The notes beneath the pieces were generated by a model. It was not told where the DNA came from. It saw nothing but the letters and a program-made list of their open reading frames with translations, and searched no databases. Both the position numbers and the translations under genes were made by a program. 64,000 nucleotides of DNA from positions 27,927 to 91,926 of the forward strand of contig CADAKI010000001.1 in NCBI GenBank assembly GCA_902788485.1. The letters are read 5' to 3'. Origin of the DNA: an uncultured Pseudomonadota bacterium. Lineage in GTDB: Bacteria > Pseudomonadota > Alphaproteobacteria > Rs-D84. This document shows, piece by piece, positions 1 to 64,000 of this stretch. Numbering within the stretch: the first letter of the stretch is position 1; the number at the start of each line of letters is the position of its first letter.

Positions 1-680
1 GCACCGATTTTATTCATAACCGCCAAATCATTTACCGGCACCGAATATTTACGCGATAACGAATACAATGTATCACCCGCCACAACGGTAATTTCACGCA
101 CCGGCGCCCGCACAGGTTTTGACTCCGATTTTTCCGACGTTTTTTTCGTCGTTTTTACATCTGACGTTTTTATTGTTTCGGTTTGCTTTGGTTTTACATC
201 TGGTTTTTGAGATGTTTTTTCTTGGACATTTTCGCGTGGCGCAACCACCAAATCATCGGTTTTATAATCAGGTATCATCAAATCATCAATGTTATCATCC
301 GGCGCAAATCCATATTCATCCCGCCCTTGCGCCGGCGCATTTTCCGCCACCGCATTGTCCGTCACATCATCCGCCGGCATACCCACATCACGTGCATCAA
401 CATCGGTATCTTGGGCGGGCATCATATAATCATCGGCGGGCGAATACAAAACATAATCTGCATCGGTAATATCGCCATTTCCATATTCAGATGCCGACGC
501 ATACATGCCATAGTCCGCAACCGCGGTTTTATAAATCTCACTATCTGGTTCCGCCAACAATGTCGGATATCGTGATGAAATAAAATCACCAACATCGTCC
601 GGAATGGACGCAATCCGCGGCTGTAAATCACACGCAGACAAAAAACCAATAAATAAAAATGCACAAAAAATTTTCTTCAC
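1..680 (-). CDS. LysM-domain lipoprotein (partial; C-terminal part runs off the window start)
   Basis: Absent from the ATG-only ORF track. The minus-strand frame is open from 680 to 1 with a GTG start at 680 and an in-frame stop at 702-704 just upstream. N-terminus VKKIFCAFLFIGFLSAC is a signal peptide plus lipobox. ITVVAGDTLYSLSRKYSVPVNDLAVMNKI near position 1 is a LysM motif. It supersedes + strand ORFs 119..469 and 183..575, which are low-complexity H/P-rich antisense translations. Confidence 0.5.
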   Translation of the reverse strand, partial: MKKIFCAFLFIGFLSACDLQPRIASIPDDVGDFISSRYPTLLAEPDSEIYKTAVADYGMYASASEYGNGDITDADYVLYSPADDYMMPAQDTDVDARDVGMPADDVTDNAVAENAPAQGRDEYGFAPDDNIDDLMIPDYKTDDLVVAPRENVQEKTSQKPDVKPKQTETIKTSDVKTTKKTSEKSESKPVRAPVREITVVAGDTLYSLSRKYSVPVNDLAVMNKIG

Positions 681-701
681 AACGGAAATTATACCATATT
701 T

Positions 702-1412
702 TTAATCACGACGCATGAATAAAATACTCAATTCAAACAACCCCCACATTGGCACCGCCAACAAAATTTGCGACACGACATCCGGTGGGGTTAAAACCGC
801 GGCAACAACAACCAAAACAATAATCGCATACCGCCGCATTGCAATCACTTTGCCACGCGATAACACACCGATTCTGTTCAATAAAATCATCAATATTGGT
901 AATTGAAACGCGATACCAAAAACCCGCAACAACCGAATCGCAAAAGACAAATAATCACGCACCGCCGGCAAAAACACCGCCGGCACCGGGGTATTCTGAT
1001 TTAACTCAATAAAAAATCCAAACACAGACGGAAACAAAATATAAAACGCAAACGCCGCACCAATTAAAAATAAAATCGGTGACGCAATCAAAATTGGCCA
1101 AATAAAATTTTTTTCTTTTTGTTTTAATCCCGGGGCGACAAATGCCCATACATGCCACAATATAACCGGCAACGTAATCAATATTGCAATCGTTCCCGCC
1201 AAAGACAACCGTATCATCAAACCGTCGGTAATACCATTATACAATAAATTTCCATGCCAAATTTTCAACAATGGCGCACTTAGAAATTCTAATGCCCATG
1301 GCGCAACATACCATGCACACACAAACGCAATTAAAAAAATAAAAACACACCACAAGAATCGCCGACGCAATTCAGAAAAATGTTCCATCAAAGTCATGCG
1401 TTTATTTTTCAT
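702..1412 (-). CDS. tatC: Sec-independent protein translocase TatC
   Basis: 236-aa polytopic membrane protein with a TatC-like N-terminus (MEHFSELRRRFLWCVFIFLIAF...) and six predicted TM segments. It overlaps the tatB stop by 4 nt. Confidence 0.9.
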   Translation of the reverse strand: MKNKRMTLMEHFSELRRRFLWCVFIFLIAFVCAWYVAPWALEFLSAPLLKIWHGNLLYNGITDGLMIRLSLAGTIAILITLPVILWHVWAFVAPGLKQKEKNFIWPILIASPILFLIGAAFAFYILFPSVFGFFIELNQNTPVPAVFLPAVRDYLSFAIRLLRVFGIAFQLPILMILLNRIGVLSRGKVIAMRRYAIIVLVVVAAVLTPPDVVSQILLAVPMWGLFELSILFMRRD

Positions 1413-1690
1413 TTTTTAATTTTCTGGCGCCCCGCCCGTTTTGGTAATTTCACCGAAAAATCATCCAACATATCGCGCGTTGTTGTGTGAATAATTTCAT
1501 CAATCGGTTTTTCCAAATCAATCTGGGTTGTGATTTGTTCCGACGCATCCGTAATTTTCCATAAAACCCCGCGAATATATTTTACCGCGCGCGCACAAAA
1601 ACGTGCAACATCGGGCCAATATTTAACCGGCACAACCAAAATTGCGACCAAAACGATTACTAAAAATTCAGCCCCACTGATACCAAACAT
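1409..1690 (-). CDS. tatB: Tat translocase subunit TatB (TatA/B family)
   Basis: 93 aa. MFGISGAEFLVIVLVAILVVPVKYWP matches the TatB N-terminal TM plus hinge consensus (MFDIGFSELLLV...LVVLGPxRLP). It sits immediately upstream of tatC. Confidence 0.75.
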   Translation of the reverse strand: MFGISGAEFLVIVLVAILVVPVKYWPDVARFCARAVKYIRGVLWKITDASEQITTQIDLEKPIDEIIHTTTRDMLDDFSVKLPKRAGRQKIKK

Positions 1691-1692
1691 TT

Positions 1693-2310: not shown

Positions 2311-3261
2311 TCACATCCCTTGGAACATTTTTATAACTTTATTTTTAACATTTTCCAAACTGTCATACACGACGGCGCCCGCCGCACACATGTGACCACC
2401 ACCACCCAACTGTTCCGCGATTTTATTGATTGGCACATGTTTACTGCGCAAAGACACACCGATTTGATTTTCTTTTTGGTGTTTTAACATCGCGATAAAT
2501 TCGACACCCTTAATCTGGCCCAACAAAGACAATGCCGTTTCACCGCGACCATCCAAATGTTTATATGATTCTGCATCCACAACCGCAACCGCCAAACGAT
2601 TTTTGAAATAAAATTCTGCATCGGCAACGACACGTGCCTCGGTCTGGATTGTTTTGCGTGGTTTATTACTCAACAATTCTAATAATCTGTTTATCTCGAT
2701 ACCTTGGTCCACCAAATCACCCATAATACGCAACGAACGTCCATCCTTGGCATATTTGAAATTTCCGGTATCGGTCAAAATTGCCAACGCCAATAAATTT
2801 AAAACCTTGTCATCATATTCCCAATTTGCATCACGCATTATATCATATAACAAACATGCCGTTGCCGCCGCCGTATCATCATCAATACAGAAATTTCCAA
2901 TTCTGGAATCATTTTTATGGTGGTCAATTTCAATTAAATATTTTGCCGCATCCAACATTGGTCGCGTTCCACCGATATTATTTACCGTGCCATAATCCAA
3001 CAAAATTGCCAAATCAAATGGTTGTGATGCATCCACGTGTTCAAAATAATGCGCACGCCCCCGCAATGGCACATAACGCAGTGCCTCGGGCACATTGCCA
3101 TCATAAACACACACACATTCTTTGCCATAATTTAAATAAATCAACTGATACAATGCCAACACAGAACACAACGCATCGCCATCCATATTTTTATGCGCAG
3201 ACAGCAAAATCGTATTTGCCGATTTAATTTTTTCTATTAAAAATTGTGTTTCATTTTTCAT
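2311..3261 (-). CDS. nrnA: DHH/DHHA1-family phosphoesterase (NrnA-like oligoribonuclease / pAp phosphatase)
   Basis: 316 aa. DHH motif region (LLSAHKNMDGDALCS...IEIDHH) and C-terminal DHHA1 GGGH motif (EQLGGGGHMCAAGA). Confidence 0.75.
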   Translation of the reverse strand: MKNETQFLIEKIKSANTILLSAHKNMDGDALCSVLALYQLIYLNYGKECVCVYDGNVPEALRYVPLRGRAHYFEHVDASQPFDLAILLDYGTVNNIGGTRPMLDAAKYLIEIDHHKNDSRIGNFCIDDDTAAATACLLYDIMRDANWEYDDKVLNLLALAILTDTGNFKYAKDGRSLRIMGDLVDQGIEINRLLELLSNKPRKTIQTEARVVADAEFYFKNRLAVAVVDAESYKHLDGRGETALSLLGQIKGVEFIAMLKHQKENQIGVSLRSKHVPINKIAEQLGGGGHMCAAGAVVYDSLENVKNKVIKMFQGM

Positions 3262-5033
3262 TATTTACCAACCGCGATATCTTCCAGCATAAACTGGGCC
3301 GTGTGCCGTCCGTTATATTCGTTATCTTTTAATCGACCCAACATTGACATTGTAGTGTTTATATTTGCATCGTCCAGCAAAAAATCACCCACCGGTGTTC
3401 CAACCAAATTAAACCCGACAAAATTAACCGTTGTTCCCATTGATGTCCGCACCACCCCACGCAGATGTGCCCCATTTCCCATAACCGTTGCATATTGTAA
3501 TTTTGCGCCATTTAACACCAATTCTGGTTCGGGGTTACCCTGGCCAAACGGGGCCAACACAGATAATTTTTGCACCAAACTCATGGTGGCGCCACTGGCA
3601 TCCAACTCGGCATCGACAATAATTTCAGGCACACCGGGATTGTCGCCTAATTGTTGCGCCACAGATTTTTCCAAAAATTCGCAAAATTCTTCTTCTTTAT
3701 CCGCCATCAAAGAAAATCCTGCTGCCGCCGCGTGTCCCCCACCCTCGGTCACGATACCGCGCGCCAACGCGTCATGAATAATGCGTCCCAAATCAACATT
3801 TGCAACCGAACGTCCCGACCCATTTATAACACCATCAATACGCGTCGCAACACAAGACGGTCGATTATATCGGTCTTTCAATCGTCCGGCAATAATCCCC
3901 ATAACACCACCATGCCAATTATCGCCACATACGAACAAACTGCATTTTCCTTTTTTGCAACATTGTTCGGCTTGCTCGGTTGCACCCAACATAATTGCAT
4001 TTTGAATATCAATTCTGTCGCGATTCATTTGGTCTAATTTTTCCGCCAGCGCACGCGCCACCAACGGATTATCGGTCAACAATAATTCCAACGCAGGTCG
4101 CGCCGAATCCAAACGTCCCGCCGCATTTAACCGCGGTCCCAACACAAACCCCGCAACATAAACCGACGCATGTTTCACACCCGCAACATCCATCAACACA
4201 CGCAACCCCAGATTTTTACGCGCATCTAAAACCTTTAATCCGGTGGACACGAACGCGCGATTCAACCCCACCAATGGCATCGTGTCACAAATTGTCCCCA
4301 ACGCGACCAAATCCAAATAATCCATCAAATTTATTTTTGATAATAATTCATGTCGCACATCATTTTGTAATCTGTCGCGCAACTCGCGATTTAATGCAAC
4401 CAATGTTAAAAACGCAACACCAACACCCGCCAAATAATTCAACCCAGATGTATCATCCGCACGTTTTGGATTCACAATCGCCGCCGACGCAGCAGGTAAA
4501 ATTTCATCAGGCGAATGATGGTCGGTCACAACAACCTGTAATCCACGTGCCACCGCATGTTTGATTTCATCGACACAACTGATACCGCAATCAACCGTCA
4601 CCAAAACATCGGCACCATCATTTACAATTTCATCAACCGCCGCAATATTTAAACCATAGCCTTCGCCCTCACGGGTTGGAACATGCCAAATCGTATCAAC
4701 ACCCAACGCACGCAGATATTTTACAAATATCGCCGTTGATGTAATTCCATCGACATCATAATCGCCATAAACCGCAATTTTTTTATTCGCCACAACCGCA
4801 TCGGCAATAACATGCGACGCCACATCCATATCATGCAACACATACGGGTCAGGCATATATTCGCGCACCGTCGGTGCCAAAAAACGTTCTATATCTTCCC
4901 GTACAGACATACCCCGGCCAACCAAGATATTACGAATCAAATCTTCGCCAAAATCTGTTTTTGCCTCAAAATCTATACTATCCATCATCACCCATGATTG
5001 TCCCATCATGGATTTATCAACTAACTTTTTCAA
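3261..5033 (-). CDS. recJ: Single-stranded-DNA-specific exonuclease RecJ
   Basis: 590 aa with RecJ N-terminal DHH core (IAVYGDYDVDGITSTAIF...GEGYGLN), HH motif (VVTDHH) and DHHA1 (GGGHAAAAG). Confidence 0.9.
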   Translation of the reverse strand: MKKLVDKSMMGQSWVMMDSIDFEAKTDFGEDLIRNILVGRGMSVREDIERFLAPTVREYMPDPYVLHDMDVASHVIADAVVANKKIAVYGDYDVDGITSTAIFVKYLRALGVDTIWHVPTREGEGYGLNIAAVDEIVNDGADVLVTVDCGISCVDEIKHAVARGLQVVVTDHHSPDEILPAASAAIVNPKRADDTSGLNYLAGVGVAFLTLVALNRELRDRLQNDVRHELLSKINLMDYLDLVALGTICDTMPLVGLNRAFVSTGLKVLDARKNLGLRVLMDVAGVKHASVYVAGFVLGPRLNAAGRLDSARPALELLLTDNPLVARALAEKLDQMNRDRIDIQNAIMLGATEQAEQCCKKGKCSLFVCGDNWHGGVMGIIAGRLKDRYNRPSCVATRIDGVINGSGRSVANVDLGRIIHDALARGIVTEGGGHAAAAGFSLMADKEEEFCEFLEKSVAQQLGDNPGVPEIIVDAELDASGATMSLVQKLSVLAPFGQGNPEPELVLNGAKLQYATVMGNGAHLRGVVRTSMGTTVNFVGFNLVGTPVGDFLLDDANINTTMSMLGRLKDNEYNGRHTAQFMLEDIAVGK

Positions 5034-7697: not shown

Positions 7698-8810
7698 TTA
7701 TTTCACTATCTTATTCATAACCGACAAAAATTTATCTGCATCTTGACGCGTATTCCACGGCCCAACCGACACACGTATTGAACCATCAATACCCAATACC
7801 CGATGAACCCAAGACGCACACATATTTCCGACACGCACACATATGTTATTTGCACCCAACATCGCACCAACATCCAATGGATGCATATTATCCACAACAA
7901 ATGTCATCAATGCCGCATCACGCGACGATAAAATTTTTATACGCGGATTTTTTTTCAATTCATCATACATATACTTAATCAATTTTAAATCAGGGCGATG
8001 CGATTCCAATTCATCAATCGCAACCGACAACCCACAAATCTGGGTCAATGGTAATGTACCGGCCTCGAATCGGTCCGGCGAATTATTCCAAATTGCCATA
8101 TCACCATCAATGCGCAATACCATGCCACCACCCAATTTATCAGGCATATATTTATCCGCATCACGAATATACAAAATCCCAACGCCGGTATCCGCACCAA
8201 TTTTGTGTCCCGACGCCACCAAGAAATCACAATCCCATTTTTTAACATCTATTTTATGATGGACGATATATTGCGTTGCATCAACCACGGTAATCACATT
8301 TGGATTTTTTTTGCGTGCCGCGCGACAAATCGCCGCGACATCTTGGGACACGCCCAACACATTAGACATCGCCGTTATCACCAATACATCTGATTTTGGC
8401 ACAGAATCGATTTTAATATTAAAATTTTCATCCAATTCACATTTTTCAATTTTGCGAATTTTACCCATGTCCAACATTTCCGCCCACGGCAACCGTGCCG
8501 AATGATGATCCAAATCAGACACCGCAACCGAAAATCCCGCAATATCAAATCGACGTGCAATAATATTAACAATTCTGTTCAACCCATCGGTCGCATTTGC
8601 CGTGAAAACAATTTGGCGGCTATCCGCATTTATAAAATCCGCAACCCGACGCCGAACGGCCGCCACCATTTCATCAACGGCACCCGCACGCGCACAAACC
8701 CCCCGCCCAGCATTTGCATAGCGATTTTTTAAAAAATCCACCTCTGTGGTAATCACAGATTCCGGTTTCAAAAAACTGGCGGCGGCATCAAAATATACGA
8801 TATCTTTCAT
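7698..8810 (-). CDS. sufS: Cysteine desulfurase (SufS/CsdA-type, aminotransferase class V)
   Basis: True start re-assigned to ATG at 8810 (MKDIVYFDAAASFLKPE...). The track's 516-aa ORF reaching 9248 overlaps trxA on the other strand. Group-II desulfurase motifs: RGVCARAG, PLP region ASGHKIG and catalytic Cys in RVGNMCAS (compare RTGHHCA). Confidence 0.8.
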   Translation of the reverse strand: MKDIVYFDAAASFLKPESVITTEVDFLKNRYANAGRGVCARAGAVDEMVAAVRRRVADFINADSRQIVFTANATDGLNRIVNIIARRFDIAGFSVAVSDLDHHSARLPWAEMLDMGKIRKIEKCELDENFNIKIDSVPKSDVLVITAMSNVLGVSQDVAAICRAARKKNPNVITVVDATQYIVHHKIDVKKWDCDFLVASGHKIGADTGVGILYIRDADKYMPDKLGGGMVLRIDGDMAIWNNSPDRFEAGTLPLTQICGLSVAIDELESHRPDLKLIKYMYDELKKNPRIKILSSRDAALMTFVVDNMHPLDVGAMLGANNICVRVGNMCASWVHRVLGIDGSIRVSVGPWNTRQDADKFLSVMNKIVK

Positions 8811-8889
8811 ATTACAAAAAACCTTGCATTTCACCAATATTATAATACACTCAATCCGAATATCAACTATTCTATAAAGGAGAAAACTC

Positions 8890-9213
8890 ATGGCATTAAA
8901 ACATGCAACAGATGCAAATTTCAACGATACAATCGCAAATGGCTTGACATTGGTCGATTTTTGGGCAACATGGTGTGGACCATGCCGCATGTTTGGGCCG
9001 ATTTTCGAATCTGTATCGAATACGATTTCAGATGTCAATTTTGTAAAATTTGAAATTGACGAAACAAATCGTACAACCCCAACAAAATTTGGCATACGCA
9101 GCATCCCCAGTGTCCTGGCATTCCGCAACGGCGAATTGATTGAGGCACGCACAGGACTTATGGACGAAGAAACCGTTATTGCGTGGATACACGAATTACA
9201 ATCCGCCCAATAA
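8890..9213 (+). CDS. trxA: Thioredoxin
   Basis: 107 aa with a WCGPC active site and the full thioredoxin fold consensus. Good SD (AAGGAG) upstream. Confidence 0.9.
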   Translation: MALKHATDANFNDTIANGLTLVDFWATWCGPCRMFGPIFESVSNTISDVNFVKFEIDETNRTTPTKFGIRSIPSVLAFRNGELIEARTGLMDEETVIAWIHELQSAQ

Positions 9214-9246
9214 TTATTTACACCACATATCCCAAGGGAGGATAAC

Positions 9247-9675
9247 ATGGCAAAACAAGATTACAAAACACTGGAACTGGCGGCGAAATATGTTCCAAAA
9301 AAATCTGAACCATATATGTGTTTGGAACAACGGGCGTATTTTTATCAGATTTTAATGGCACAAAAACAGGAAATTACTGACGGCAATTCTGATGTATTAA
9401 ACGTTGTTCGCAACGGCGACAATGGCGACGCCGCGGGGGTTGGTGACGATGCCGACAACGCATCCGCATCCCAGGCACTAACAATGAACCTGCGCATGTC
9501 GGAACGCGACAACAATTTGTTAAAAAAGATAGATGCCGCATTGGAACGATTGGAAAACGGCAAATTCGGTTTCAGTGTTATATCCGGCGACCCAATCGGA
9601 ATTCCACGTCTTTTGGCACGTCCATTGGCAACAATGACGGTCGAAGAACAAGAAGAATACGAAGCAAACAAATAA
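9247..9675 (+). CDS. dksA: DksA/TraR-family RNA polymerase-binding regulator, cysteine-free variant
   Basis: 142 aa. C-terminus ERLENGKFGFSVISGDPIGIPRLLARPLATMTVEE aligns with E. coli DksA [29 protein letters not shown]. All four Zn-finger Cys are replaced (S, S, T, E). Confidence 0.7.
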   Translation: MAKQDYKTLELAAKYVPKKSEPYMCLEQRAYFYQILMAQKQEITDGNSDVLNVVRNGDNGDAAGVGDDADNASASQALTMNLRMSERDNNLLKKIDAALERLENGKFGFSVISGDPIGIPRLLARPLATMTVEEQEEYEANK

Positions 9676-9772: not shown

Positions 9773-10108
9773 TTATTCAATCCACATATCAACCAGTGGC
9801 GCATTTGCGGCCGTTCCTGATTTAACCTTGGATGTTCTGTTTGCATCTGTCCATCCAATAGTAGCCACCTCTTTCGCCCTTGTAGAGCCAGAAGGGATCA
9901 TACTAGTAGATGTTTGGGGATTTTGAGACAGAGTTGCAGGAGAATTAGCAGAGTTCTGAATTTCAACACCGTTACTATTGCGTTGAATTGATGCATCAAT
10001 ATACGCAACAGAAGCCAGCTTCGTATCCGCCGCATTGGCGACACCGCCAACACAACAAAACACGCAAGAAAACAACAAAAATTTGAGAATTGTTGCTCTC
10101 AGTCTCAT
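9773..10108 (-). CDS. Secreted hypothetical protein
   Basis: 111 aa with an N-terminal signal peptide (LKFLLFSCVFCCVGGVANAA). The mature part is low-complexity and S/T/N-rich. No recognisable domain. Confidence 0.4.
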   Translation of the reverse strand: MRLRATILKFLLFSCVFCCVGGVANAADTKLASVAYIDASIQRNSNGVEIQNSANSPATLSQNPQTSTSMIPSGSTRAKEVATIGWTDANRTSKVKSGTAANAPLVDMWIE

Positions 10109-10173: not shown

Positions 10174-10404
10174 TTATTTTTGTGTTTTATTCTTGACTTT
10201 TCTATAACCTTTTGATTTTACAGGTGTTTTAGAAACCTTTTTCTTGACATCTGCACCATCTTTTTTGTCCGTATTTTTCAATTCTTTTTTAAAGATATTT
10301 ATCCCATCGGCGACATTTTTCATCATGCCCGGAATCGCCCGATGACCGAACAAAATAATCAACAAAATAACAATAACCAGTATTTCCATCCAACCCAATC
10401 TCAT
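10174..10404 (-). CDS. tatA: Tat translocase subunit TatA
   Basis: Start re-assigned to ATG at 10404 (MRLGWMEILVIVILLIILFGHRAIPGMMKNVADGINIFKKE...), preceded by SD AAGGGGG. TM + LFG + amphipathic-helix KxFKK pattern is typical of TatA/E. The ATG at 10440 would overlap the upstream SPOR gene. Confidence 0.7.
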   Translation of the reverse strand: MRLGWMEILVIVILLIILFGHRAIPGMMKNVADGINIFKKELKNTDKKDGADVKKKVSKTPVKSKGYRKVKNKTQK

Positions 10405-10421
10405 TTTATGCCCCCTTTTAA

Positions 10422-11237
10422 TTATTTGGCAACATAGCAATCCAAACCATCCGATTTGGCATTACGACAAAAACCATTTGCATCATTACTGTTATTAAAC
10501 GCAACACGCAACCGATATGTTGTCCGACCATCTTTTAACACTGAGGCCAAAACAACAAATTGTTTTCCGGCGAACAAACTGCTGTGCGCGGCACGAATTT
10601 TTACCCCGGCTGCATTTGCCGCGTCACGCGTTGCATATGAACCAAACTGAACATACCATGCGGCACCACCAGACGACTTTTCAACTTTCTTTGGTGCGGT
10701 TTTTGCCACCGGCTTTTTTGCCGTCTGGGCAGTCGTTTTTTGTACAGGTTTCACAACCGGTTTTGCAACTGGCTCTGATTCAACCTTGTTCGGATTAAAC
10801 ACGACATCGCGTCTATCTTCGATAACACGAACATTTGAATCAACATCCGCCCCAGGTTTAACATCCACTTTTTTCGGTTGTGGTTGTGGTTGAACCTGGA
10901 CCGGTGCAACCGGCGCAACATTTTGCGCAACCGCAACATCCGACGGCACATTTAATGGTTGTGGATTCACATCCGGTGTTGGCATTGGCGCCGGCATATC
11001 ACCACCATCAACAACCACAGACGGTTCGCCATCTAAATCAATCTCAACCGATGAAGACGAAGACCCCCCAACGGTGCGCACAATCACATATGTTGCCAAC
11101 GCAATCACAACCAAACCCACCCCTAACAACAACCACGGCTTTCTGGGACGTGGGGTTGCAAATGCAACCTCGGGTAAAGAATCCGATGTGTCACCATCTA
11201 AATCTAATAAATCCAAATTTGTGTTTTCGTCGTTCAT
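10422..11237 (-). CDS. SPOR-domain protein (FtsN/DedD-like; single TM, Pro-rich linker, C-terminal SPOR)
   Basis: 271 aa. TM LLLGVGLVVIALATYVIV, a P/V/Q/K-rich linker, and C-terminal WYVQFGSYATRDAANAAGVKIRAAH...YRLRVAFNNSNDANGFC...GLDCYV matching the SPOR fold consensus. Confidence 0.75.
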   Translation of the reverse strand: MNDENTNLDLLDLDGDTSDSLPEVAFATPRPRKPWLLLGVGLVVIALATYVIVRTVGGSSSSSVEIDLDGEPSVVVDGGDMPAPMPTPDVNPQPLNVPSDVAVAQNVAPVAPVQVQPQPQPKKVDVKPGADVDSNVRVIEDRRDVVFNPNKVESEPVAKPVVKPVQKTTAQTAKKPVAKTAPKKVEKSSGGAAWYVQFGSYATRDAANAAGVKIRAAHSSLFAGKQFVVLASVLKDGRTTYRLRVAFNNSNDANGFCRNAKSDGLDCYVAK

Positions 11238-11552: not shown

Positions 11553-13280
11553 TTATAAAGGCATTTTGATTGCATCAATCATTTGACGAACAAAATCATT
11601 TAACGCCACAACTTCCTGGGATTCTACCCCCAATTTACGCAAAGTGACCGTTTTATCATTTTGTTCTTTTTCACCAACAACGGCAATGATTGGTGTTTTT
11701 GCCATCGACAATTCGCGAATCTTGTAATTAACCTTTTCGTCGCGCAAATCTGCACGTGCATAAACACCCGCGCCACGCAAATCGGCAACAACCTTTTCTG
11801 CATATTCGCGATATTTTTCCGACACAGGCACAACAACAACCGGTTCCGGCGACAGCCACAACGGCAAATTACCCGCATGGTTTTCCAACAATATGCCCAT
11901 AAACCGTTCAATCGATCCAAACAACGCACGATGCAACATCACCGGACGATGTTTTTCACCATCTTCACCGATATAAGAAATATCGAATCTTTCCGGTAAA
12001 TTCATATCGACCTGGATTGTTCCACATTGCCATTCGCGACCAATTGCATCACGCAAAATAAATTCCAACTTGGGTCCATAAAACGCACCCTCGCCCGGAT
12101 TTATTTCAAACGCGTATCCATGCGCCGTCAACGCATTTGCCAACGATTTTTCGCACAAATCCCAAATTTCATCCGAACCAATACGTTTTTCCGGCCGCGT
12201 GGACAGATAAATTTTAACATCCGTAAATCCAAATGTTTTATAAATATCCAAAATCAGTTTTAATGTATCGATGCATTCTGCCTCCATCTGTTCTGGGGCA
12301 CAGAAAATATGCGCATCATCCTGGGTAAACTCACGCACACGCATCAATCCCATCAACGAACCCGATGCCTCGTAACGATTAACCTTGCCAAATTCAGCCA
12401 TACGCAACGGCAAATCGCGATAAGAACGCAATTCATTACGATAAATCAATACACCACCCGGACAATTCATCGGTTTAATACAGAACATACGTCCATCTTC
12501 GGTTTTGCCCGAATAATTATGTGCACCATATTTTTCCCAATGTCCGGATGTTTCCCACAAAGACCGATCCATAACACCGGGGGTGCAAACCTCGACATAA
12601 CCGGCGCGGTCCTGACGGGCACGCATATATTCAATCAAACGACGATAAATTTTATAACCCTTGTCATGCCAAAACACCGCACCCGGCGCAAATTCCGGTT
12701 CAAAATGGAACAAATCCATTTCGCGCCCCAATTTACGATTATCGCGTTTGGCGGCCTCTTCCTGCATCTTCAAAAACGCATCCAATTCATCTTTGCTGGC
12801 AAATGCATCAACATAAATTCTTTGCAGCATTTTGTTTTTAGAATCCCCCCGCCAATACGCACCGGCAACCGCGCGAATTTTGAACCCATCGCGTGGCAAA
12901 TCCTTACTTGATTCCACATGCGGCCCACGGCACAAATCCGTAAAATCACGGAAAGTATAAATCGACAACTTTTCGCCATTGGCATCATATTCATTCAACC
13001 ATTCCATTTTATACGGCTGGTCCGCAAAGATTTGTTTTGCTTCATCTAAACTGACAATTCTTTGTTCGAATCGACCATTTGATTTAATCAGTTCACGCAT
13101 TTCCCGTTCGATTTTTTCAAAATCTTCTTCGGAAAATCTGTAATCTGTATCGAAATCATAATAAAATCCATTTTCGATTGCCGGTCCACCCGCAAATTTA
13201 ATTTCCGGATGTAATTTTTTAACCGCCGCCGCCATAACGTGAGCCAACGAATGACGAACCGTTTCAATTGGATAAGACAT
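11553..13280 (-). CDS. thrS: Threonine--tRNA ligase lacking the N-terminal TGS domain
   Basis: 575 aa. Starts at RHSLAHVMAAAVKKL...GFYYDFD, equivalent to about residue 70 of E. coli ThrRS. Class-II motifs present (FRDFTDLCRGPHV; CIKPMNCPG; RMAEFG...QDDAHIFC). An in-frame stop lies 6 codons upstream of the ATG, so no TGS domain in this frame. Confidence 0.9.
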   Translation of the reverse strand: MSYPIETVRHSLAHVMAAAVKKLHPEIKFAGGPAIENGFYYDFDTDYRFSEEDFEKIEREMRELIKSNGRFEQRIVSLDEAKQIFADQPYKMEWLNEYDANGEKLSIYTFRDFTDLCRGPHVESSKDLPRDGFKIRAVAGAYWRGDSKNKMLQRIYVDAFASKDELDAFLKMQEEAAKRDNRKLGREMDLFHFEPEFAPGAVFWHDKGYKIYRRLIEYMRARQDRAGYVEVCTPGVMDRSLWETSGHWEKYGAHNYSGKTEDGRMFCIKPMNCPGGVLIYRNELRSYRDLPLRMAEFGKVNRYEASGSLMGLMRVREFTQDDAHIFCAPEQMEAECIDTLKLILDIYKTFGFTDVKIYLSTRPEKRIGSDEIWDLCEKSLANALTAHGYAFEINPGEGAFYGPKLEFILRDAIGREWQCGTIQVDMNLPERFDISYIGEDGEKHRPVMLHRALFGSIERFMGILLENHAGNLPLWLSPEPVVVVPVSEKYREYAEKVVADLRGAGVYARADLRDEKVNYKIRELSMAKTPIIAVVGEKEQNDKTVTLRKLGVESQEVVALNDFVRQMIDAIKMPL

Positions 13281-13538
13281 AATAACTAACCTTTTTTATC
13301 TGTATTTGTTTTTTTAATTTGAAATTGTTTTGAATTATAATACGCACAAAACATATGTGCAAATAAAATTACCGCACCCCCACAGGGGTTGTGGTTGTCA
13401 ATGTCGTAAAGATGAATTTATTTAAAAACATGCAAATATAATAAAACAAAAACCGCCAAAAGTCAACACATCACGCTTTCAATTTTGAAAACACATTAAA
13501 ATATGATAAAATATCTCAGAAAACATTATGGAGAGATT

Positions 13539-16808: not shown

Positions 16809-17465
16809 ATGGAAAAACAAGAAATAAGAACATTTGGTCGCCGACACGGTAAAAAATTATCGCCACGAAAACAATCGTTATTGGCGAATATTTTGCCGGC
16901 CATTTTGCCAAAAAACATCAAAAACACCGGGAATTTAATTCTGGAAATTGGTTTTGGCAATGGCGAACATGTTCGCGATTTGGCGATTCGCAATCCACAA
17001 TCAATTATTATTGGCGCCGAACCATTTATGAACGGTGTTGCGGCATTATTATCCGCCATCACACACGAATCGAATAATCAAATTATGGACGAATTTAAAA
17101 ACATCTATATTTGGCCGGACGATGTTCGAAAACTTTTACATGAAACAAATCTAGAATTTAACGAAATTTGGGTTTTGCACCCAGACCCCTGGCCCAAGGC
17201 AAAACATGAAAAACGCAGGTTATTAAATTCTGAATTTTTAAATCTAATTGGCGAACATTTAACCGCGGATGGCCAAATCATCATCGGCACCGACCATTGG
17301 GAATATTTCGATTGGATATCACAACAGGTTAAAAAAACCGCGCTATGTGCATCATTTCCGCCAAAATCTAAAATTCATACACGATACGCTGAAAAAAATA
17401 TGGCGGGAACAACCGAACCAAAATATATGATTTTAACAAAATCAATAATTGACCCAAAAATGTAA
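16809..17465 (+). CDS. trmB: tRNA (guanine46-N7)-methyltransferase
   Basis: Start re-assigned to ATG at 16809 (MEKQEIRTFGRRHGKKLSPRKQ...). The 316-aa track ORF overlaps gltX. TrmB motifs LEIGFGNGEH, IGAEPF and HPDPWPKAKHEKRRL. Confidence 0.85.
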   Translation: MEKQEIRTFGRRHGKKLSPRKQSLLANILPAILPKNIKNTGNLILEIGFGNGEHVRDLAIRNPQSIIIGAEPFMNGVAALLSAITHESNNQIMDEFKNIYIWPDDVRKLLHETNLEFNEIWVLHPDPWPKAKHEKRRLLNSEFLNLIGEHLTADGQIIIGTDHWEYFDWISQQVKKTALCASFPPKSKIHTRYAEKNMAGTTEPKYMILTKSIIDPKM

Positions 17466-18116: not shown

Positions 18117-18158
18117 TGTCCTTTTTACTTTATCACAAATATGATATAATTAAAACAA

Positions 18159-45045: not shown

Positions 45046-45046
45046 A

Positions 45047-53089: not shown

Positions 53090-54169
53090 TTATTCACCCA
53101 TATCACCTGACGCATTGTCGTCATCATCCACAGGCCCCGTTGTCATCTCTTCTGCGATACCATTGGCCTGGGCCATGATTTTATCCAACAATTCTTGCTG
53201 GACATCCGGATGGTCTTTTATCCATTGGCGCGCATTCGCCTCGCCCTGACCCATGCGTTCATTATTGTATGAATAAAAAGAACCCGCCTTTTCGATGATA
53301 TTGTATTTCACACCCATATCCAAAATTTCAGATATGCGGGAAATACCTTCGCCATACATGATTTTGAAATCGACCGTCCGGAACGGTGGCGCAACCTTGT
53401 TTTTAACAATTTTGACACGCGTTTCATTACCGATAACATTTTCTTTATCTTTGATTGCACCGGTCCGACGAATATCCAAACGAACCGAGGCATAGAATTT
53501 CAATGCATTACCACCCGATGTTGTTTCCGGATTACCAAACATAACACCGATTTTCATACGGATTTGATTGATGAAAATCAATAATGTATTACTGCGCGAT
53601 ACAGACCCCGCCAATTTTTTCAGCGATTGCGACATCAAACGCGCGGTCGTTCCAACAAAAGAATCACCGATATTACCCTCTAATTCTGCGCGAGGTACCA
53701 ATGCCGCAACCGAATCGATAACCACAACATCAACCGCACCCGATTTAATCAAAGTATCGGCAATTTCCAACGCCTGTTCCCCAGAATCCGGTTGTGAAAT
53801 AATCAATTCTGAAACATTACAACCCAATTTTTTTGCATAACTCGGGTCCAGCGCATTTTCCGCATCAATATATGCACATGTGCCACCTTTCTTTTGTGCC
53901 TCGGCCACGGCATGCAGTGCCAATGTTGTTTTACCCGAACTTTCCGGTCCGTAAATTTCAACAATACGACCACGCGGATACCCACCGATACCCAACGCAA
54001 TATCCAACCCCAAAGACCCAGATGATATCGCCTCGATATTTTGTTGCGAACCATCACCCATTTTCATAATGGCTTCTTTGCCGAATTGTTTTTGGATTTG
54101 TGCCAACGCAGATTCCAACGCCGGATTTTTGGCCGGTGTGGCGGATGCATCTTTTTCTTTCTTTGCCAT
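53090..54169 (-). CDS. recA: Recombinase RecA
   Basis: Start re-assigned to ATG at 54169 ([39 protein letters not shown]...). Walker [14 protein letters not shown] and the full RecA core follow. Confidence 0.9.
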
Positions 54170-54238
54170 AAATATTCCCCTTTGTTTTTCTATCCAGATG
54201 ATACTAGGAAAAACCCCTATTTGCAAGCCCGATAATAA

Positions 54239-57676: not shown

Positions 57677-59923
57677 ATGACGAAAGAGATTGAATTGAGA
57701 ACGTTCTTTAAAATTTTATCGGCTTTATTTTTGTGCACACCGGCGGCGGTGGCGGCACCCATTTCGCAACCCGCGGGCAGTAATCTGACCCAATACAACG
57801 GTTCAATGGGATCCATCGTTGGCAATCAATGGAACAACGCAATCAACCCGCGCAATAATACCGGAACCACAAAGGCCACGGCCGATTTTGGAAATTGTAA
57901 TTCGTTAATTTTGCGTTGTGCATCACCCAAATGTTCGGGTGGCGGTTGTGCAAATATGGATATTGCGAAACCGATTGTTGCGGGCTGTGTAAATTCTAAT
58001 TCTGCATGTAAAAAGCATGGTGACGATTTAATAAACGCAATCGCGGCACAATTAGTATCCGATTCAATCGCGGCACAAAACAAACAATCGGCAAACGCCG
58101 CCGCTGCGGCTGCCGCGGCGCAACAAAACAATACGGCATTGCAACAACAATTACAATCGATGCAGCAACAAATGGCATCTATGCAACAACAAAATAGTGA
58201 ACAAATAAATTCATTACAACAACAGTTGGCGGAATCACAGCGCGAAACACAAAACGCGGTCGCGTCGGTCGCGGAAAATGCATCGCGTGCGGCAACGGCG
58301 ACAAATAGCGACACGGGCCTGACCCCGGTGCAAGAGGCGGCGGCAAAATCGGGTGTATCGGATGATGTAATTGCACGCGCCACAATTACCGGACAAATTT
58401 TAACCAGTATGGAAGGCGTCGACCAAAGTTTGAATAATTTAAAAACAACAATGCGTGACGCGTTCCGCTATGCCAAATGTAACGAGGTCAATGGAAATAA
58501 TTGCAGTGCCCCAAAACGCGTTGCAAAATTCCGCGAATTGGCAAACAAATTTATGGAACCATACGACGCATTGGCGGACAACCTGGACGATGCATTATTC
58601 ACCGCGCAATCGGTCGGTGTTGATTTGGGTAATATTTATATGTTTTTCAGTGGCTCTTGCAACCGTTGGGCGGAATACGTTTGCCGTGGTGATTATGCTG
58701 AAAAATGCACTGGCGAAGGAGAAAGCAGAAAATGTGAATCCGGTTTACCAACATATAAATATGGAGATAATTGCATAAAAGATACACATAAATCCAGCAA
58801 AAATAACGGCATCACTCGTGGAGGACACGATTGTTATGAAGGAAATGTTATTCCACCCGAAGATTTAATTGCATGCACGCCGAATAAATACCTGGACCCA
58901 AGCGATGGCCCAATCCAAGAAAAAATCTTAAATCCCGACGCAACATCCACGGGTTCGGTGCGTATCGGTTGCGCCAGTGACAGTATAAACAACAGCATTA
59001 TCCGCCGTCGCCGCAGCAGCAGTAAAAACAAATCCGGCATCGATATTGATTTATTGGAAATATTACTGAATCAAAATGAAGCAAGTAGTAAATTTAGCAA
59101 AACATTTGATAAATGTGATTCCGATACGAAATCTGCATGTTATTGCGGTTTGGGAAAAAACAATAACGACAGCGAGCTATCTGTTAGCATAAACAAAGCA
59201 ATAACTCAATTAAAGACCGCAACCGTATCAAAAACTTTGGGCAAAAACGCATGTATAGAATCATTTAGTTCCGCGGCAGCGACAACCAAAATGGTTGACT
59301 GTTATGATTTAGACCAAGATGTCTCTTATGTTGACCCGATATTTGCGCTGTGTGATACACATGCATGGAACGCGGGAATTGAATCAAATGACGACATTAA
59401 CGGTTCTGGCAAATCTGAAAACCGCGAAAAAATGAACGAAATTATCGCACTGAAAACAACCGTGATTGCACAACAAATGTATAAACAATACGCGACATTG
59501 GAACAAATGATTAAACAATTAAAAGTTATGTTGGAAAAAGAAGTGTTAAAGGCATCTGTCCAGGTTGCCGGCGGCACATCGTCCGACGACGATACATCCA
59601 CAGACAAGGTAGAGTTTTCATCTTGTTCCGCATTTGACGATGAAGAAGCATTAAGTTGCTTGCGCGACAATTACGCAAAATTACAACCGATTGTTGAAAA
59701 AGGCAGATTAAATAACAATTACAGAGACCAACTGAGCAAAGATTGCGCAGTAACCAAGGCATTACAGGTTGTAACAAGTTGTGATAAATGTTCTTCTATA
59801 AATAGCAAACAAAAAATGAAAGATTGTTTAGAAGTTATTGCCGGCGGTATGAATGCATTAAACAGGCGAATCAAAGACGACAAAGCAAAAAATAATAGTG
59901 TATCATATCGATTGATTCAATAA
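57677..59923 (+). CDS. Large secreted cysteine-rich protein with Ala/Gln coiled-coil segment (hypothetical)
   Basis: 748 aa. Signal peptide LSALFLCTPAAVAAP, about 40 Cys, a poly-Ala/Gln coiled-coil (AAAAAAAAQQNNTALQQQLQSMQQQMASMQQQ), and RRRRSSS. No recognisable catalytic domain. Flanked by repeat copies A and B. Confidence 0.5.
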   Translation: MTKEIELRTFFKILSALFLCTPAAVAAPISQPAGSNLTQYNGSMGSIVGNQWNNAINPRNNTGTTKATADFGNCNSLILRCASPKCSGGGCANMDIAKPIVAGCVNSNSACKKHGDDLINAIAAQLVSDSIAAQNKQSANAAAAAAAAQQNNTALQQQLQSMQQQMASMQQQNSEQINSLQQQLAESQRETQNAVASVAENASRAATATNSDTGLTPVQEAAAKSGVSDDVIARATITGQILTSMEGVDQSLNNLKTTMRDAFRYAKCNEVNGNNCSAPKRVAKFRELANKFMEPYDALADNLDDALFTAQSVGVDLGNIYMFFSGSCNRWAEYVCRGDYAEKCTGEGESRKCESGLPTYKYGDNCIKDTHKSSKNNGITRGGHDCYEGNVIPPEDLIACTPNKYLDPSDGPIQEKILNPDATSTGSVRIGCASDSINNSIIRRRRSSSKNKSGIDIDLLEILLNQNEASSKFSKTFDKCDSDTKSACYCGLGKNNNDSELSVSINKAITQLKTATVSKTLGKNACIESFSSAAATTKMVDCYDLDQDVSYVDPIFALCDTHAWNAGIESNDDINGSGKSENREKMNEIIALKTTVIAQQMYKQYATLEQMIKQLKVMLEKEVLKASVQVAGGTSSDDDTSTDKVEFSSCSAFDDEEALSCLRDNYAKLQPIVEKGRLNNNYRDQLSKDCAVTKALQVVTSCDKCSSINSKQKMKDCLEVIAGGMNALNRRIKDDKAKNNSVSYRLIQ

Positions 59924-60200: not shown

Positions 60201-60680
60201 CTATTGCACATTAAATCGTGCCATATTCGCGTGTGTCATGGCGATTGCGATTGCGTCACTTTCATCCGCCGTTTTAGGTTTTGCCGCCGGCAATAATATT
60301 TTCAGCATTTTATAAATCTGTTCTTTGTCCGCATGCCCTGCCCCGGTCAACGCCTTTTTGATAATATTTGGTTCATATTCAAAAACCGGGATATTATTAT
60401 GCGCAACACTAACAATCGCCGCCGCACGCGCATGCCCCAATAACAAAGTTGTCTTTGGATTTTTATTAGAAAATATAATCTCGATACTACACACATCAGG
60501 TTTGAATTTTTCACATAACTCTGACACACCACGAAAAATAAAATCCAACCGTTCCGGCAACGGCAATTTTGTTGGTGGCAAAATCACACCACTGGCAACA
60601 TATGTACGCGACGACCCGGCAACATCAATTATCGCCCAACCTGTATGCAATAAACCCGGATCAATTCCAATAATTCTCAT
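60201..60680 (-). CDS. ruvC: Holliday-junction resolvase RuvC
   Basis: 159 aa. MRIIGIDPGLLHTGWAII; the catalytic D, E, D, D are positioned as in RuvC. Confidence 0.9.
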   Translation of the reverse strand: MRIIGIDPGLLHTGWAIIDVAGSSRTYVASGVILPPTKLPLPERLDFIFRGVSELCEKFKPDVCSIEIIFSNKNPKTTLLLGHARAAAIVSVAHNNIPVFEYEPNIIKKALTGAGHADKEQIYKMLKILLPAAKPKTADESDAIAIAMTHANMARFNVQ

Positions 60681-61571: not shown

Positions 61572-62150
61572 ATGATTGGCAAATTGCAAGGAATTGTTGA
61601 TTATATCGGTGACGGGTTTGTCATTTTAATGGCGGGTCCCGTCGGATATAAAGTTTACACACCAAATTACCTGACATTAAAATCAACGGTGGCACTATGG
61701 ATTGAAACCATCGTCCGCGAAGATTCAATCCGCCTATTTGGGTTTTTATCATTAAATGAACAGAACCTGTTTAACAATTTAACATCTGTATCGGGCGTCG
61801 GGCCCAAGGTTGCATTGGGCATAATGTCATCAATCAAAACCGATACATTAATGTCGGCAATTGCCACAGGCGACGCAAAAACAATCGCGACCGCCCCGGG
61901 GGTTGGCAAAAAAGTTGCCGAAAAAATCATTGTCGAATTAAAAAATAAAATGGGCGGCGCATCATTTGATTTGGGCAACACCGGTGGAAACGCATCTGCA
62001 TTACCTGATTTGTTATCTGCATTGGAAAGTTTGGGTTATCGTCGTATTGATATTGTTGATATGGCACAAAAATTGGTATCCGAAAACCCGGAAATCGATG
62101 TTGCCAAATTGGTTCCAATGGCATTAAAAATTATAAGCAATGGTAAATAA
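61572..62150 (+). CDS. ruvA: Holliday-junction branch-migration protein RuvA
   Basis: 192 aa. MIGKLQG N-terminal OB domain and two HhH motifs (LTSVSGVGPKVALGI; IATAPGVGKKVAEKI). Confidence 0.9.
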   Translation: MIGKLQGIVDYIGDGFVILMAGPVGYKVYTPNYLTLKSTVALWIETIVREDSIRLFGFLSLNEQNLFNNLTSVSGVGPKVALGIMSSIKTDTLMSAIATGDAKTIATAPGVGKKVAEKIIVELKNKMGGASFDLGNTGGNASALPDLLSALESLGYRRIDIVDMAQKLVSENPEIDVAKLVPMALKIISNGK

Positions 62151-62151
62151 A

Positions 62152-63453
62152 ATGAATAACGATACTATATTTGCTTTATCGTCCGGGTTTGGAAAATCCG
62201 GTATTGCGGTAATTCGCATATCCGGCGATAATTTACAAGAATTTGCAACACACATTATTGGCAAAAAAAATCAAGAACTGAAATCTCGCCACGCTTATTT
62301 TTGCAATCTGCGCGATGACGCGGGTGATTTAATCGACCAATGCGTTGTGATTTATTTTGCGGCACCGGCGTCCTTTACCGGCACAGATGTCATTGAAATC
62401 CACACACACGGCGCAACGGCGGTAATCAACAAAATATTTGAATTTTTATCCCGCCACAACATGCGCATGGCCATACCCGGCGAATTTTCCCGTCGTGCAT
62501 TTATGAACAACAAAATGGATTTAACCGATGTCGATGGATTGGCGGCGTTATTGGACGCACAAACAGACCGCCAACGCCAATTTGCATTAAAATCTATGCT
62601 GGGGGGGGATGGCGAAATTTACAACGCATGGCGCGAACAAATGGTTGAAATCGCCGCGTATGCCGCCGCAATTTTGGATTATGACGCGGACGATTTACCA
62701 CAAAACATCGATGAAAAAATTTTGGCTAAAACCCGCGCATTACACCAAGAAATCAAAACAACACTTTCACATTATAATATATCGCGCGCAATCACACATG
62801 GATTTAATATCGCGTTATGCGGCGAAACCAATGTTGGCAAGTCGTCATTGTTTAATAAATTGGTTGGCACAAACCGCGCGATTGTATCCGATATCGCCGG
62901 CACAACACGGGACGTTATATCTGCACAAATTGATATCGACGGGTATTTGGTAAATTTATCTGATACGGCGGGCATGCGCGAAACCGGTGACGAAATTGAA
63001 AAAATGGGAATCGATAAAACAAAATCAGAAATCAATTCCGCCGATTTGGTCTTGCATGTATTCGCCGACGACAATGTCGTCACACCAACGGACAAAGAAA
63101 TCATTGTTATAAACAAATGCGACAAAATCAAAACCCATAATAACAAAAATGCGATTTATACATCTGTAAAAAATGATTCAGGCATTGACGAATTGGTATC
63201 CGCAATTCGCAAAAAAATGCACAACATATTGGACGGCGCCGAAAACAATTTGATAATAAATGCCCGCACACATAAATTATTGTCGGATACAGAACACGAA
63301 TTAAATTCTGCCCTGACAAAATTTGACGGCAATTATGATATATTCGCCGAACATGTGCGTCGTGCCGCCGACAACATCGGAAAAATATTGGGAACAATCA
63401 CGGCAACGGACGTTATGGACGCAACATTTTCACAATTATGCCTGGGAAAATAA
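62152..63453 (+). CDS. mnmE: tRNA modification GTPase MnmE
   Basis: Start taken at MNNDTIFALSSGFGKSGIAVIRISG (aligns to E. coli MSDNDTIVAQAT...). The ATG at 62140 is also possible. G-domain GETNVGKSSLFN, DTAG, and C-terminal CLGK. Confidence 0.9.
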   Translation: MNNDTIFALSSGFGKSGIAVIRISGDNLQEFATHIIGKKNQELKSRHAYFCNLRDDAGDLIDQCVVIYFAAPASFTGTDVIEIHTHGATAVINKIFEFLSRHNMRMAIPGEFSRRAFMNNKMDLTDVDGLAALLDAQTDRQRQFALKSMLGGDGEIYNAWREQMVEIAAYAAAILDYDADDLPQNIDEKILAKTRALHQEIKTTLSHYNISRAITHGFNIALCGETNVGKSSLFNKLVGTNRAIVSDIAGTTRDVISAQIDIDGYLVNLSDTAGMRETGDEIEKMGIDKTKSEINSADLVLHVFADDNVVTPTDKEIIVINKCDKIKTHNNKNAIYTSVKNDSGIDELVSAIRKKMHNILDGAENNLIINARTHKLLSDTEHELNSALTKFDGNYDIFAEHVRRAADNIGKILGTITATDVMDATFSQLCLGK

Positions 63454-63490
63454 ATGTATTTATTATGCCCGCAAAGACGGGTAAAAAAAC

Positions 63491-63513
63491 CGCCCAACCG
63501 GGCGATTTTTTTT
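63491..63513. terminator. Bidirectional terminator between convergent mnmE and an acyl-CoA ligase gene
   Basis: cgccc-aacc-gggcg hairpin flanked by A7 and T8. Confidence 0.5.
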
Positions 63514-64000
63514 ATTCTTTTCTGTCCGGATATTTACCATCTAACAAATTTTTACGAACCTCATGATGTTTAATTTTTTGTGTAGATGTCATTGGCAAAT
63601 CATCCGTTGTCATTGCAAAATGTGTCACCCATTTATACGATGCCACCTTTTTATTTGCCGCCACCACCGCCGCAGACAGTTTTTCCATCGTCATACCGGG
63701 TTCAACCTGGAACACACCATAGGCAACGGTTTTACCACCAACAACATGTTCAAACACCGCGACATTTTTAACACCAGGAATATCTGAAAACAACGCCTCT
63801 AATTCATCCGGATAAACATTTTTACCAGAATCCAAAACAATTACTTGCTTTTTACGACCGGCAAAATGCAATTCGCCATTTTTATCCATAAACACCAAAT
63901 CCCCGGTTTTGAAAAATCCACGTTCGTCAAAAGATTCCGCATTGGCCTCATCGTTATTCATGTATCCACCAAAAACCTGATGTCCACGCACCCACAGCAT
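63512..64000 (-). CDS. AMP-dependent synthetase/ligase (acyl-CoA synthetase), C-terminal part; gene continues beyond the window end
   Basis: MLWVRGHQVFGGYMNNDEANAESFDERGFFKTGDLVFMDKNGELHFAGRKKQVIVLDSGKNVYPDELE is the AMP-binding enzyme C-terminal region (GDL hinge, VYP). Confidence 0.7.
   Translation of the reverse strand: MLWVRGHQVFGGYMNNDEANAESFDERGFFKTGDLVFMDKNGELHFAGRKKQVIVLDSGKNVYPDELEALFSDIPGVKNVAVFEHVVGGKTVAYGVFQVEPGMTMEKLSAAVVAANKKVASYKWVTHFAMTTDDLPMTSTQKIKHHEVRKNLLDGKYPDRKE

Follow-up and report, generated by a model that had tools for sequence, protein, structure and literature searches.

Lineage-wide scarcity of the AG/CT dinucleotide in Candidatus Enterousia and its possible maintenance by a weak fixation bias acting on DNA

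Why should a bacterial genome be poor in AG and, with it, in CT, the same base-pair step read from the opposite strand? The question is raised by a stretch of 64,000 nucleotides from an uncultured bacterium (assembly GCA_902788485.1, contig CADAKI010000001.1, positions 27,927 to 91,926; hereafter the window, whose internal coordinates are used throughout), in which this dinucleotide occurs at roughly a third of its expected frequency. The window belongs to Candidatus Enterousia (Alphaproteobacteria, order Rs-D84). Its TypA (typA/bipA, 45112-46959, + strand) is 98% identical in amino acid sequence to that of the metagenome-assembled genome UBA3635, and has 80 species-level relatives at 88-98% identity, many of them named Candidatus Enterousia; a Pasteurellaceae-like codon usage, the first reading of the codon list, was dropped on this evidence. 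Enterousia and other Rs-D84 are uncultured gut and rumen bacteria whose genomes measure less than about 1 Mb and whose metabolism is reduced, and they are proposed to depend on partners (PMC12306168); the window covers about 7% of a genome of roughly 0.9 Mb. Gene calls were heuristic: a greedy set of 70 open reading frames (ORFs) covers 95.7% of the window, most of them ordinary housekeeping genes by Pfam, and codon statistics refer to the 59 of at least 100 residues. Our findings support, with a probability that we put at about 0.5, a model in which AG/CT is avoided at the DNA level throughout the lineage by a weak fixation bias, whose agent would be a DNA-acting activity recognizing the dinucleotide itself.

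With a base composition of A 0.316, C 0.251, G 0.168, and T 0.266, the window holds 2267 AG and CT dinucleotides, where mononucleotide shuffles give 7654±69 (z = -78.6); per 60 nucleotides this is 2.13 against an expected 7.18. On the single strand rho is 0.274 for AG and 0.314 for CT, and the symmetrized value, ρ* (hereafter the odds ratio), is 0.291 over the window, far outside 0.8-1.2. The roughly three-fold depletion and the odds ratio near 0.3 that a first-pass annotation had estimated by eye are thus borne out by exact computation, and the depletion extends, as it had claimed, over the whole window and both gene orientations: none of the 32 windows of 2 kb has an odds ratio outside 0.20-0.48, the median per ORF is 0.27, and coding-strand values are 0.26 for AG and 0.28 for CT in genes on the + strand, and 0.31 and 0.27 in those on the - strand. 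Its spot counts hold as well (the 10 at 30001-30300 exactly; 9.2 per 240 nucleotides in typA, its example gene, for the 10 counted there). It went astray over GA/TC, which it had placed at or above expectation with about 9 per line of 60 nucleotides: the actual count is 5.75 and the odds ratio 0.79, a mild depletion. Other values are 1.49 for CG, 1.33 for AA/TT, and 0.65 for TA; the CpG excess surpasses the conventional limit of 1.23, and CGCG, CGCC, and GCGG occur at 2.8-3.4 times their zero-order expectation. A single ORF, of 111 residues (9773-10108, - strand), has near normal AG/CT (0.90). Its protein starts with a signal-peptide-like hydrophobic stretch and has no Pfam match, the gene uses many TCT, ACT, GCT, CCT, and CTG codons, and it may have been acquired recently or be under a different constraint. 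The neighboring tatA (10174-10440) is also relatively AG-rich (0.55). Among the least depleted genes (0.44) is likewise 57677-59923 (+ strand), whose product of 748 residues has an N-terminal signal-peptide-like hydrophobic stretch, long low-complexity stretches rich in Gln, Ala, Asn, and Ser, many Cys, and no real Pfam match.

Codon usage does not account for the deficit. The depletion is alike at codon positions 1-2 (0.31 for AG, 0.26 for CT), 2-3 (0.29, 0.30), and 3-1 (0.29, 0.18), so that it is not confined to third positions. When synonymous codons are shuffled within genes, which keeps protein sequence and codon usage intact, junctions between codons should hold 1415±21 AG and 603±18 CT; they hold 529 (z = -42) and 125 (z = -27). 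The choice among synonyms varies with the base that follows: of GCA plus GCG, GCG accounts for 85% before G and 29% before A; of GAC plus GAT, GAC accounts for 3% before T and 29% before A; and the same dependence is seen in all pairs of codons ending in A/G or C/T. Translational codon usage would act in coding DNA alone and be indifferent to the neighboring codon, which is not what is found. Non-coding DNA beyond the Shine-Dalgarno zones (the 20 nucleotides upstream of starts) contains 96 AG and CT against 234±12 after shuffling, a ratio of 0.41, and the comparison of coding with intergenic DNA that the first-pass annotation had proposed therefore finds depletion in both. Within the intergenic fraction the odds ratio is 0.63 in those zones and 0.40 elsewhere; the zones are less depleted because AAGGA/AGGAG motifs sit there, as in ..CAAAGGATAATTAAA before serS (43571-43595, + strand), and such motifs account for much of the small intergenic AG count. 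The codon preferences listed by the first-pass annotation do hold, although it missed exceptions that the genome tolerates, namely TCT (267 of 1097 Ser codons), CTG (183 of 1641 Leu codons), and AGT (161).

The trait is not peculiar to this genome. We compared about 165 related loci, drawn from two syntenic neighborhoods, with Escherichia coli as the sole comparator outside Rs-D84, and all of them are depleted (0.25-0.80); the E. coli control stands at 0.83. All 80 typA loci are depleted (0.28-0.73, median 0.52), as are 80 metagenomic ftsK loci from rumen, human gut, sludge, and other sources (61-98% protein identity; 0.28-0.80) and a more distant sister lineage that includes a complete genome of 716 kb (0.53-0.69); an abundant species with 53.5% G+C (GC) has 0.35. 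The comparison with sister taxa thus extends the original observation to the whole lineage, in graded form, and since close pairs have similar values the trait evolves slowly. Across loci, by correlations without phylogenetic correction, stronger depletion accompanies higher GC (-0.59 to -0.65), higher CG (Spearman -0.77), and lower GA/TC (0.73). The junction log-odds of sense A|G and sense C|T vary together (r = 0.64 over 97 loci; about 0 in E. coli), which argues for one strand-symmetric cause. Ordinary codon usage or adaptation to the tRNA pool, or else an artefact of assembly or sequencing, would be the simplest explanation, and codon preferences do follow the AG/CT rule; it is hardly credible, given the synonymous shuffle, the depletion in non-coding DNA and in dipeptides, the intact reading frames, and the recurrence of the bias in some 165 independently assembled relatives from many studies, close relatives included.

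The unit that is avoided is the dinucleotide. All 16 NAGN contexts fall below expectation (0.06-0.83). Under a first-order Markov model the residual AGs are ordered by their 5' neighbor as CAG > AAG > GAG ~ TAG, which is also the E. coli pattern, and a modest 3' effect is left, AGA/TCT being tolerated and AGC/GCT further avoided. A short restriction target containing AG or CT, one of the causes that the first-pass annotation had entertained, fails at four base pairs: allowing for trinucleotide frequencies, 4.9 AGCT and 5.9 CTAG are expected, and 3 and 9 are seen; since neither is rarer than its trinucleotides predict, no 4-bp site is involved and avoidance of AluI-type (AGCT) or CTAG sites is ruled out. 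A target of 2-3 bp may still be involved, and for this the chlorovirus enzymes described below offer a precedent. Selection on RNA, by which AG-rich sequences resembling Shine-Dalgarno motifs, CU-rich sequences resembling their complement, or a ribonuclease site would be avoided in messengers, could draw on the genuine AAGGA/AGGAG motifs in use, which hold that large share of the intergenic AGs, and on the rarity of GGAG (0.09) and AGGA (0.18). Contexts unrelated to Shine-Dalgarno motifs are, however, equally or more depleted (TAGC 0.09, GAGC 0.06, TAGT 0.10, AGCT 0.01), GAGG/CCTC is over-represented given its trinucleotides (1.88), non-coding DNA beyond the Shine-Dalgarno zones is depleted too (0.41), and AG and CT in the sense strand are equally affected and vary together across species. 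These contexts and the non-coding depletion rule out avoidance of Shine-Dalgarno and anti-Shine-Dalgarno sequences, and selection on RNA as a whole seems very improbable.

One tetranucleotide does behave as a restriction target. GATC occurs 13 times in the window against 242 expected from trinucleotides (0.05), and CGATCG and TGATCA have no sites at all. This Markov-corrected deficit, of the kind that AGCT and CTAG lack, is a genuine restriction-type word avoidance, separate from that of AG/CT. Almost the whole clade shares it: the median ratio over 98 loci is 0.19, and 78% of these loci have less than 0.3. It fades where AG/CT depletion is weak; the two strengths correlate at a Spearman coefficient of 0.51, or 0.40 with GC removed. 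Alphaproteobacteria are not expected to use Dam/MutH, and the scarcity of GATC therefore looks like the result of long exposure to a GATC-specific restriction activity. Other palindromes are nearly absent species by species: ACGT in L149 (0.00) and L006 (0.18), TCGA in L059 (0.11), and GGCC in L067 and L014 (0.15-0.16); CATG too shows patchy avoidance, and L078 is among the loci with species-specific palindrome loss. Such patchiness is the pattern that turnover of restriction-modification systems would give, and contrasts with the AG/CT depletion, which is present in all of the 165 or so loci and similar in close pairs.

The bias reaches into proteins. Among the 1244 coding-strand AGs that remain, 501 have no synonymous escape, because a Lys, Glu, or Gln codon before a codon starting with G keeps its AG whichever synonym is used (both AAA|G and AAG|G contain one). 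The corresponding dipeptides, [KEQ][GAVDE], number 501 where amino acid composition predicts 924 (0.54), and in reverse order they stand at 1.01. In 112 related loci, each 12 kb or longer, the ratio follows the AG odds ratio (Spearman 0.75; reverse order -0.05), and in the E. coli control region it is 0.99. We also took orthologous positions at which weakly depleted relatives have K, E, or Q before a conserved residue with a G-starting codon and compared them with the window and its three closest relatives: K/E/Q has been replaced in 24 of 108 cases (22%), against 39 of 339 (11.5%) before residues whose codons start with another base (odds ratio 2.2, p = 0.007), most commonly by K->R and E->D, and the reverse comparison shows no asymmetry (7.7% in both). 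Judged from these aligned sequences, the AG/CT bias is strong enough to have altered proteins.

Whether mutation or fixation maintains such a state can be approached through substitutions. At 4-fold degenerate third positions in 11 independent pairs of close genomes, conditioned on a conserved first base of the next codon, A has a frequency of 0.126 before G and 0.35-0.41 in other contexts, and C has a frequency of 0.046 before T and 0.18-0.25 elsewhere. Before G, A is gained at 0.31x [0.28-0.35] and lost at 1.42x [1.28-1.55] the rate in other contexts; before T, C is gained at 0.29x and lost at 1.76x. A selection model in which the strength S is taken from the frequency odds (1.5 and 1.8) predicts 0.43 and 1.9 in the first case and 0.36 and 2.2 in the second, and a mutational hot spot predicts losses at about 5x and gains at 1x; both predictions assume near-equilibrium and neutral 4-fold sites. 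All six paths that create AG/CT run at about 0.3x and all six that destroy it at about 1.4-1.8x, so that creation is suppressed and destruction enhanced in the ratio that the equilibrium sets, as under fixation bias, with neither the dominant path of loss nor the raised flux of a CpG-like decay. In the window, L001, and L002, the AGs lost on terminal branches became AA (76), GG (29), CG (20), TG (17), AC (9), and AT (5), and gains arise from the same neighbors in the same proportions. The change AG->AA/CT->TT makes up about 50% of the losses, and AA->AG about 50% of the gains; the context-specific deamination offered by the first-pass annotation is therefore not upheld. A MutT-type A:T->C:G mutator, suggested by the CG excess of 1.49, is also ruled out, since AG->CG is minor (20 of 156 and 3 of 40 losses) and A->C before G is no faster (0.068) than elsewhere. 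A parsimony count on terminal branches (5-16% divergence; 354 gains against 172 losses) was not relied on, since gains are overestimated when fast sites lose the dinucleotide in parallel.

Younger changes were polarized in two strain trios, the only ones at hand, as a scan of metagenomes yielded almost no same-species contigs and look-ups by exact protein merge strains that are nearly identical. The first comprises the window (29308-46136) and L162, a strain 97% identical, with L001 or L091 as outgroup; the second comprises L168 and L169 (99.3%) with L144 as outgroup (98.3%). The species of L168 and L169 is abundant, turning up in 439 blocks of the assembly collection. Together they give 421 young polarized substitutions, 60 of which are AG/CT gains and 40 losses, where random placement of the same base changes in the same sequences would give 122 and 22.6. 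The resulting AG/CT flux is 0.69x expectation [0.56-0.83], and the predictions are 0.65 under selection, 1.69 under a mutational hot spot, and 0.31 if creation alone were suppressed. The substitution process thus fits a fixation bias against the dinucleotide rather than one hypermutable pathway. The first-pass annotation had spoken of a strand-symmetric mutational or selective pressure; that the cause lies in DNA and is strand-symmetric stands, while the choice that it left leans to selection or fixation bias and away from a hypermutable context. Replication-strand effects, or a primase preference for CTG, are set aside, since on one strand, despite a strong G/C skew, AG is as depleted as CT. 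The skew itself runs all along the window (+ strand G 16.8% against C 25.1%, A 31.6% against T 26.6%), the - strand carries 40 of the 59 larger genes, and the window seems to fall entirely within one replichore.

A neutral alternative has a context-dependent bias of mutation or repair, in the replisome or repair machinery of these reduced genomes, set AG/CT composition as a mutational equilibrium. Genomes below 1 Mb (PMC12306168) make the loss of repair functions plausible; the youngest substitutions (0.7-3% divergence) already show gains at 0.49x and losses at 1.77x, with a gain:loss ratio of 1.5 that is not significantly above 1; and the correlations of the AG odds ratio with GC (-0.59) and with the CG excess (-0.77) are those that conversion of AG/CT to GC-richer steps predicts. 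Yet there is no dominant pathway, AG->CG being rare and AG->AA balanced by AA->AG, so that coordinated shifts of about two-fold in all 12 paths, in opposite directions, would be required; the flux is 0.69 and not the 1.69 of a hot spot; and amino acid constraint has been overridden directionally. The window also encodes MutL with an endonuclease C-terminal domain (35871-37646, - strand), RecA (53090-54226, - strand), RecJ (3261-5033), RuvA (61572-62150), and RuvC (60201-60680); at least part of the mismatch-repair machinery is in place, and this speaks against a simple mutator born of repair loss. We regard a mutational or repair bias as possible but, on this evidence, unlikely. Biased gene conversion, in which heteroduplex repair during recombination between strains would disfavor the strand carrying AG/CT, could mimic selection without any effect on fitness. 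Substitutions do follow the pattern of a fixation bias, and the recombination genes named, together with MutL and RarA (an XerC/D-like recombinase and FtsK are further window genes), lend it plausibility. We know, however, of no repair system that recognizes every mismatch type in a dinucleotide context. The nearest example, very-short-patch repair, acts on T:G in one pentanucleotide, and no Vsr-like gene is seen in the window; biased gene conversion is accordingly improbable in our judgement.

The model that we favor would work as follows. The AG/CT base-pair step would be disfavored as a feature of double-stranded DNA across the genome, by a weak, pervasive bias at fixation that acts like selection with S of about 1.5-1.8 per site. 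Synonymous codons are chosen by the first base of the codon that follows, and where synonymy offers no escape, at Lys, Glu, or Gln before a G-starting codon, the amino acid itself tends to be swapped (K->R, E->D). A cost that is equal on both strands, independent of context, and of the order of S 1.5-2 per site suggests an activity that recognizes the AG/CT step itself and exacts a small price at each. Further support comes from the GATC deficit of the same genomes, a restriction-type avoidance whose strength varies together with that of the AG depletion. Our top-ranked candidate, proposed by analogy, is an AG-specific enzyme (a nickase that cuts frequently, a methyltransferase, or another modification system), carried by Rs-D84/Enterousia or by elements that prey on the lineage, such as its phages, in response to which the genome would have been purged; this identification is tentative and rather doubtful. 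Specificity at this level does exist: in chlorovirus NY-2A, Nt.CviQII nicks R^AG and M.CviQII methylates AG (PMC3017599). A cost per site of such a pair would give weak, context-independent avoidance. The pair belongs to a virus of a eukaryotic alga, and no homologue was seen here, no search aimed at one having been made. The R^AG preference for the 5' base is not mirrored either, for although TAG and GAG are the rarest, the order CAG>AAG>GAG~TAG is that of E. coli too.

Several observations weigh against this account. No restriction, DNA methyltransferase, nuclease, or defence gene was found in the window or the syntenic loci, and Enterousia is reported to carry few known defence systems (PMC11834463). 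A three-fold reduction leaves thousands of AG sites per genome, so that the genome would be at best partly protected from a cutter. The excess of young gains over losses that selection predicts is marginal (60:40, p = 0.057), and errors of parsimony push in the same direction. The cross-locus correlations are not phylogenetically independent. Finally, the substitution data do not tell selection apart from a mutation spectrum that halves all creating and doubles all destroying changes, nor from biased gene conversion.

How do known systems compare? Depletion of CpG through methylation and deamination, in vertebrates and some bacteria, is likewise genome-wide, strand-symmetric, and of similar magnitude (about 0.2-0.3). 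It proceeds, however, by one path (CG->TG/CA) with an excess of the products, whereas six paths of loss and six of gain are shifted here; the AG/CT flux is below its context-free expectation, unlike that of CpG decay, and CpG is over-represented in the window (1.49). Avoidance of restriction sites (palindromes) and depletion of CTAG by very-short-patch repair likewise concern a short word on both strands, under selection or biased repair, but the known cases involve words of 4-6 bp that are rarer than their sub-words, and here the unit is a dinucleotide and the effect clade-wide and graded. RNA viruses avoid CpG and UpA under pressure from ZAP-type host sensors, and there too the dinucleotide as such is affected, through synonymous sites and across codon boundaries; that case concerns single-stranded RNA and host immunity, the present one symmetric double-stranded DNA in a bacterium. 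Karlin's genomic signature and the survey of more than 15,000 bacterial genomes by Forni et al. (2024) use the same statistic. The latter identifies TpA as the dinucleotide most strongly depleted and CpG as the one with the widest dispersion, with 0.78 and 1.23 as limits (PMC11282364), and values of 0.25-0.35 for AG/CT lie far beyond this conventional range; a word search of that paper returned no mention of ApG or CpT. Nor did open-access full text yield a description of AG/CT depletion, or of anything unusual in the composition of Enterousia/Rs-D84. Under-representation of a dinucleotide across a genome is thus well known, and an AG/CT deficit of this size is without a parallel that we could find in open-access text.

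Dinucleotide and short-word deficits have revealed mechanisms before: CpG led to methylation, viral UpA and CpG to host sensors, and palindromes to restriction. By the same token, the selection-like behavior of AG/CT, together with its effects on dipeptides and the K->R and E->D replacements, suggests an unrecognized constraint at the DNA level in widespread, uncultured gut bacteria. If an AG-specific system were indeed responsible, it would be the first discrimination of DNA at the dinucleotide level in bacteria, a DNA analogue of CpG sensing, and foreign DNA would be recognizable by its normal AG/CT content. The species gradient from 0.25 to 0.8 offers a natural experiment for locating the responsible gene by phylogenetic profiling. 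On the practical side, the signature marks Enterousia sharply, both for binning and for spotting foreign DNA in it, and standard models of codon usage and substitution make assumptions that do not hold for this clade.

Some further features of the window deserve mention. The stretch 35112-56959 is 100% identical to scaffold_12 (382 kb) of ENA ERZ28613628, and tRNA and Rfam scans of the 64 kb gave no matches. At 40823-42705 (- strand), two ORFs of 304 and 323 residues, one with a weak match to the lysozyme-like GH108 family, adjoin the gene of an XerC/D-type recombinase. Orthologues occur in only 2-3 of 80 relatives, which marks a variable spot; both ORFs are as poor in AG/CT as the rest of the window, and a query with them for Enterousia phages in a collection of viral contigs returned no relatives. 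The SufS-like cysteine desulfurase ORF (7698-9248, - strand; 516 residues) has an aminotransferase domain that begins only at residue 151, and either carries a long N-terminal extension or has a miscalled start. Two gene blocks, at 17442-19992 and 25708-27610, encode conserved hypothetical proteins of 224, 296, 168, 144, 241, and 385 residues without Pfam matches; a PADLOC scan of them returned nothing, and NCBIfam gave a single sub-threshold match, of the 144-residue protein (19558-19992) to the YrhA family (21.2 bits against a cutoff of 55). Their counterparts in L164 lie at 12282-14215 and 18116-20693, and this synteny even in a distant sister lineage points to lineage-specific core genes without an assigned function. 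Lastly, a protein of 643 residues (20205-22136, - strand) joins an N-terminal YbeY endoribonuclease domain to apolipoprotein N-acyltransferase (Lnt) domains, and the same arrangement in distant relatives (L164 15977-17968, L166 19116-21128, L167 18938-21028) indicates a gene fusion conserved in the lineage.

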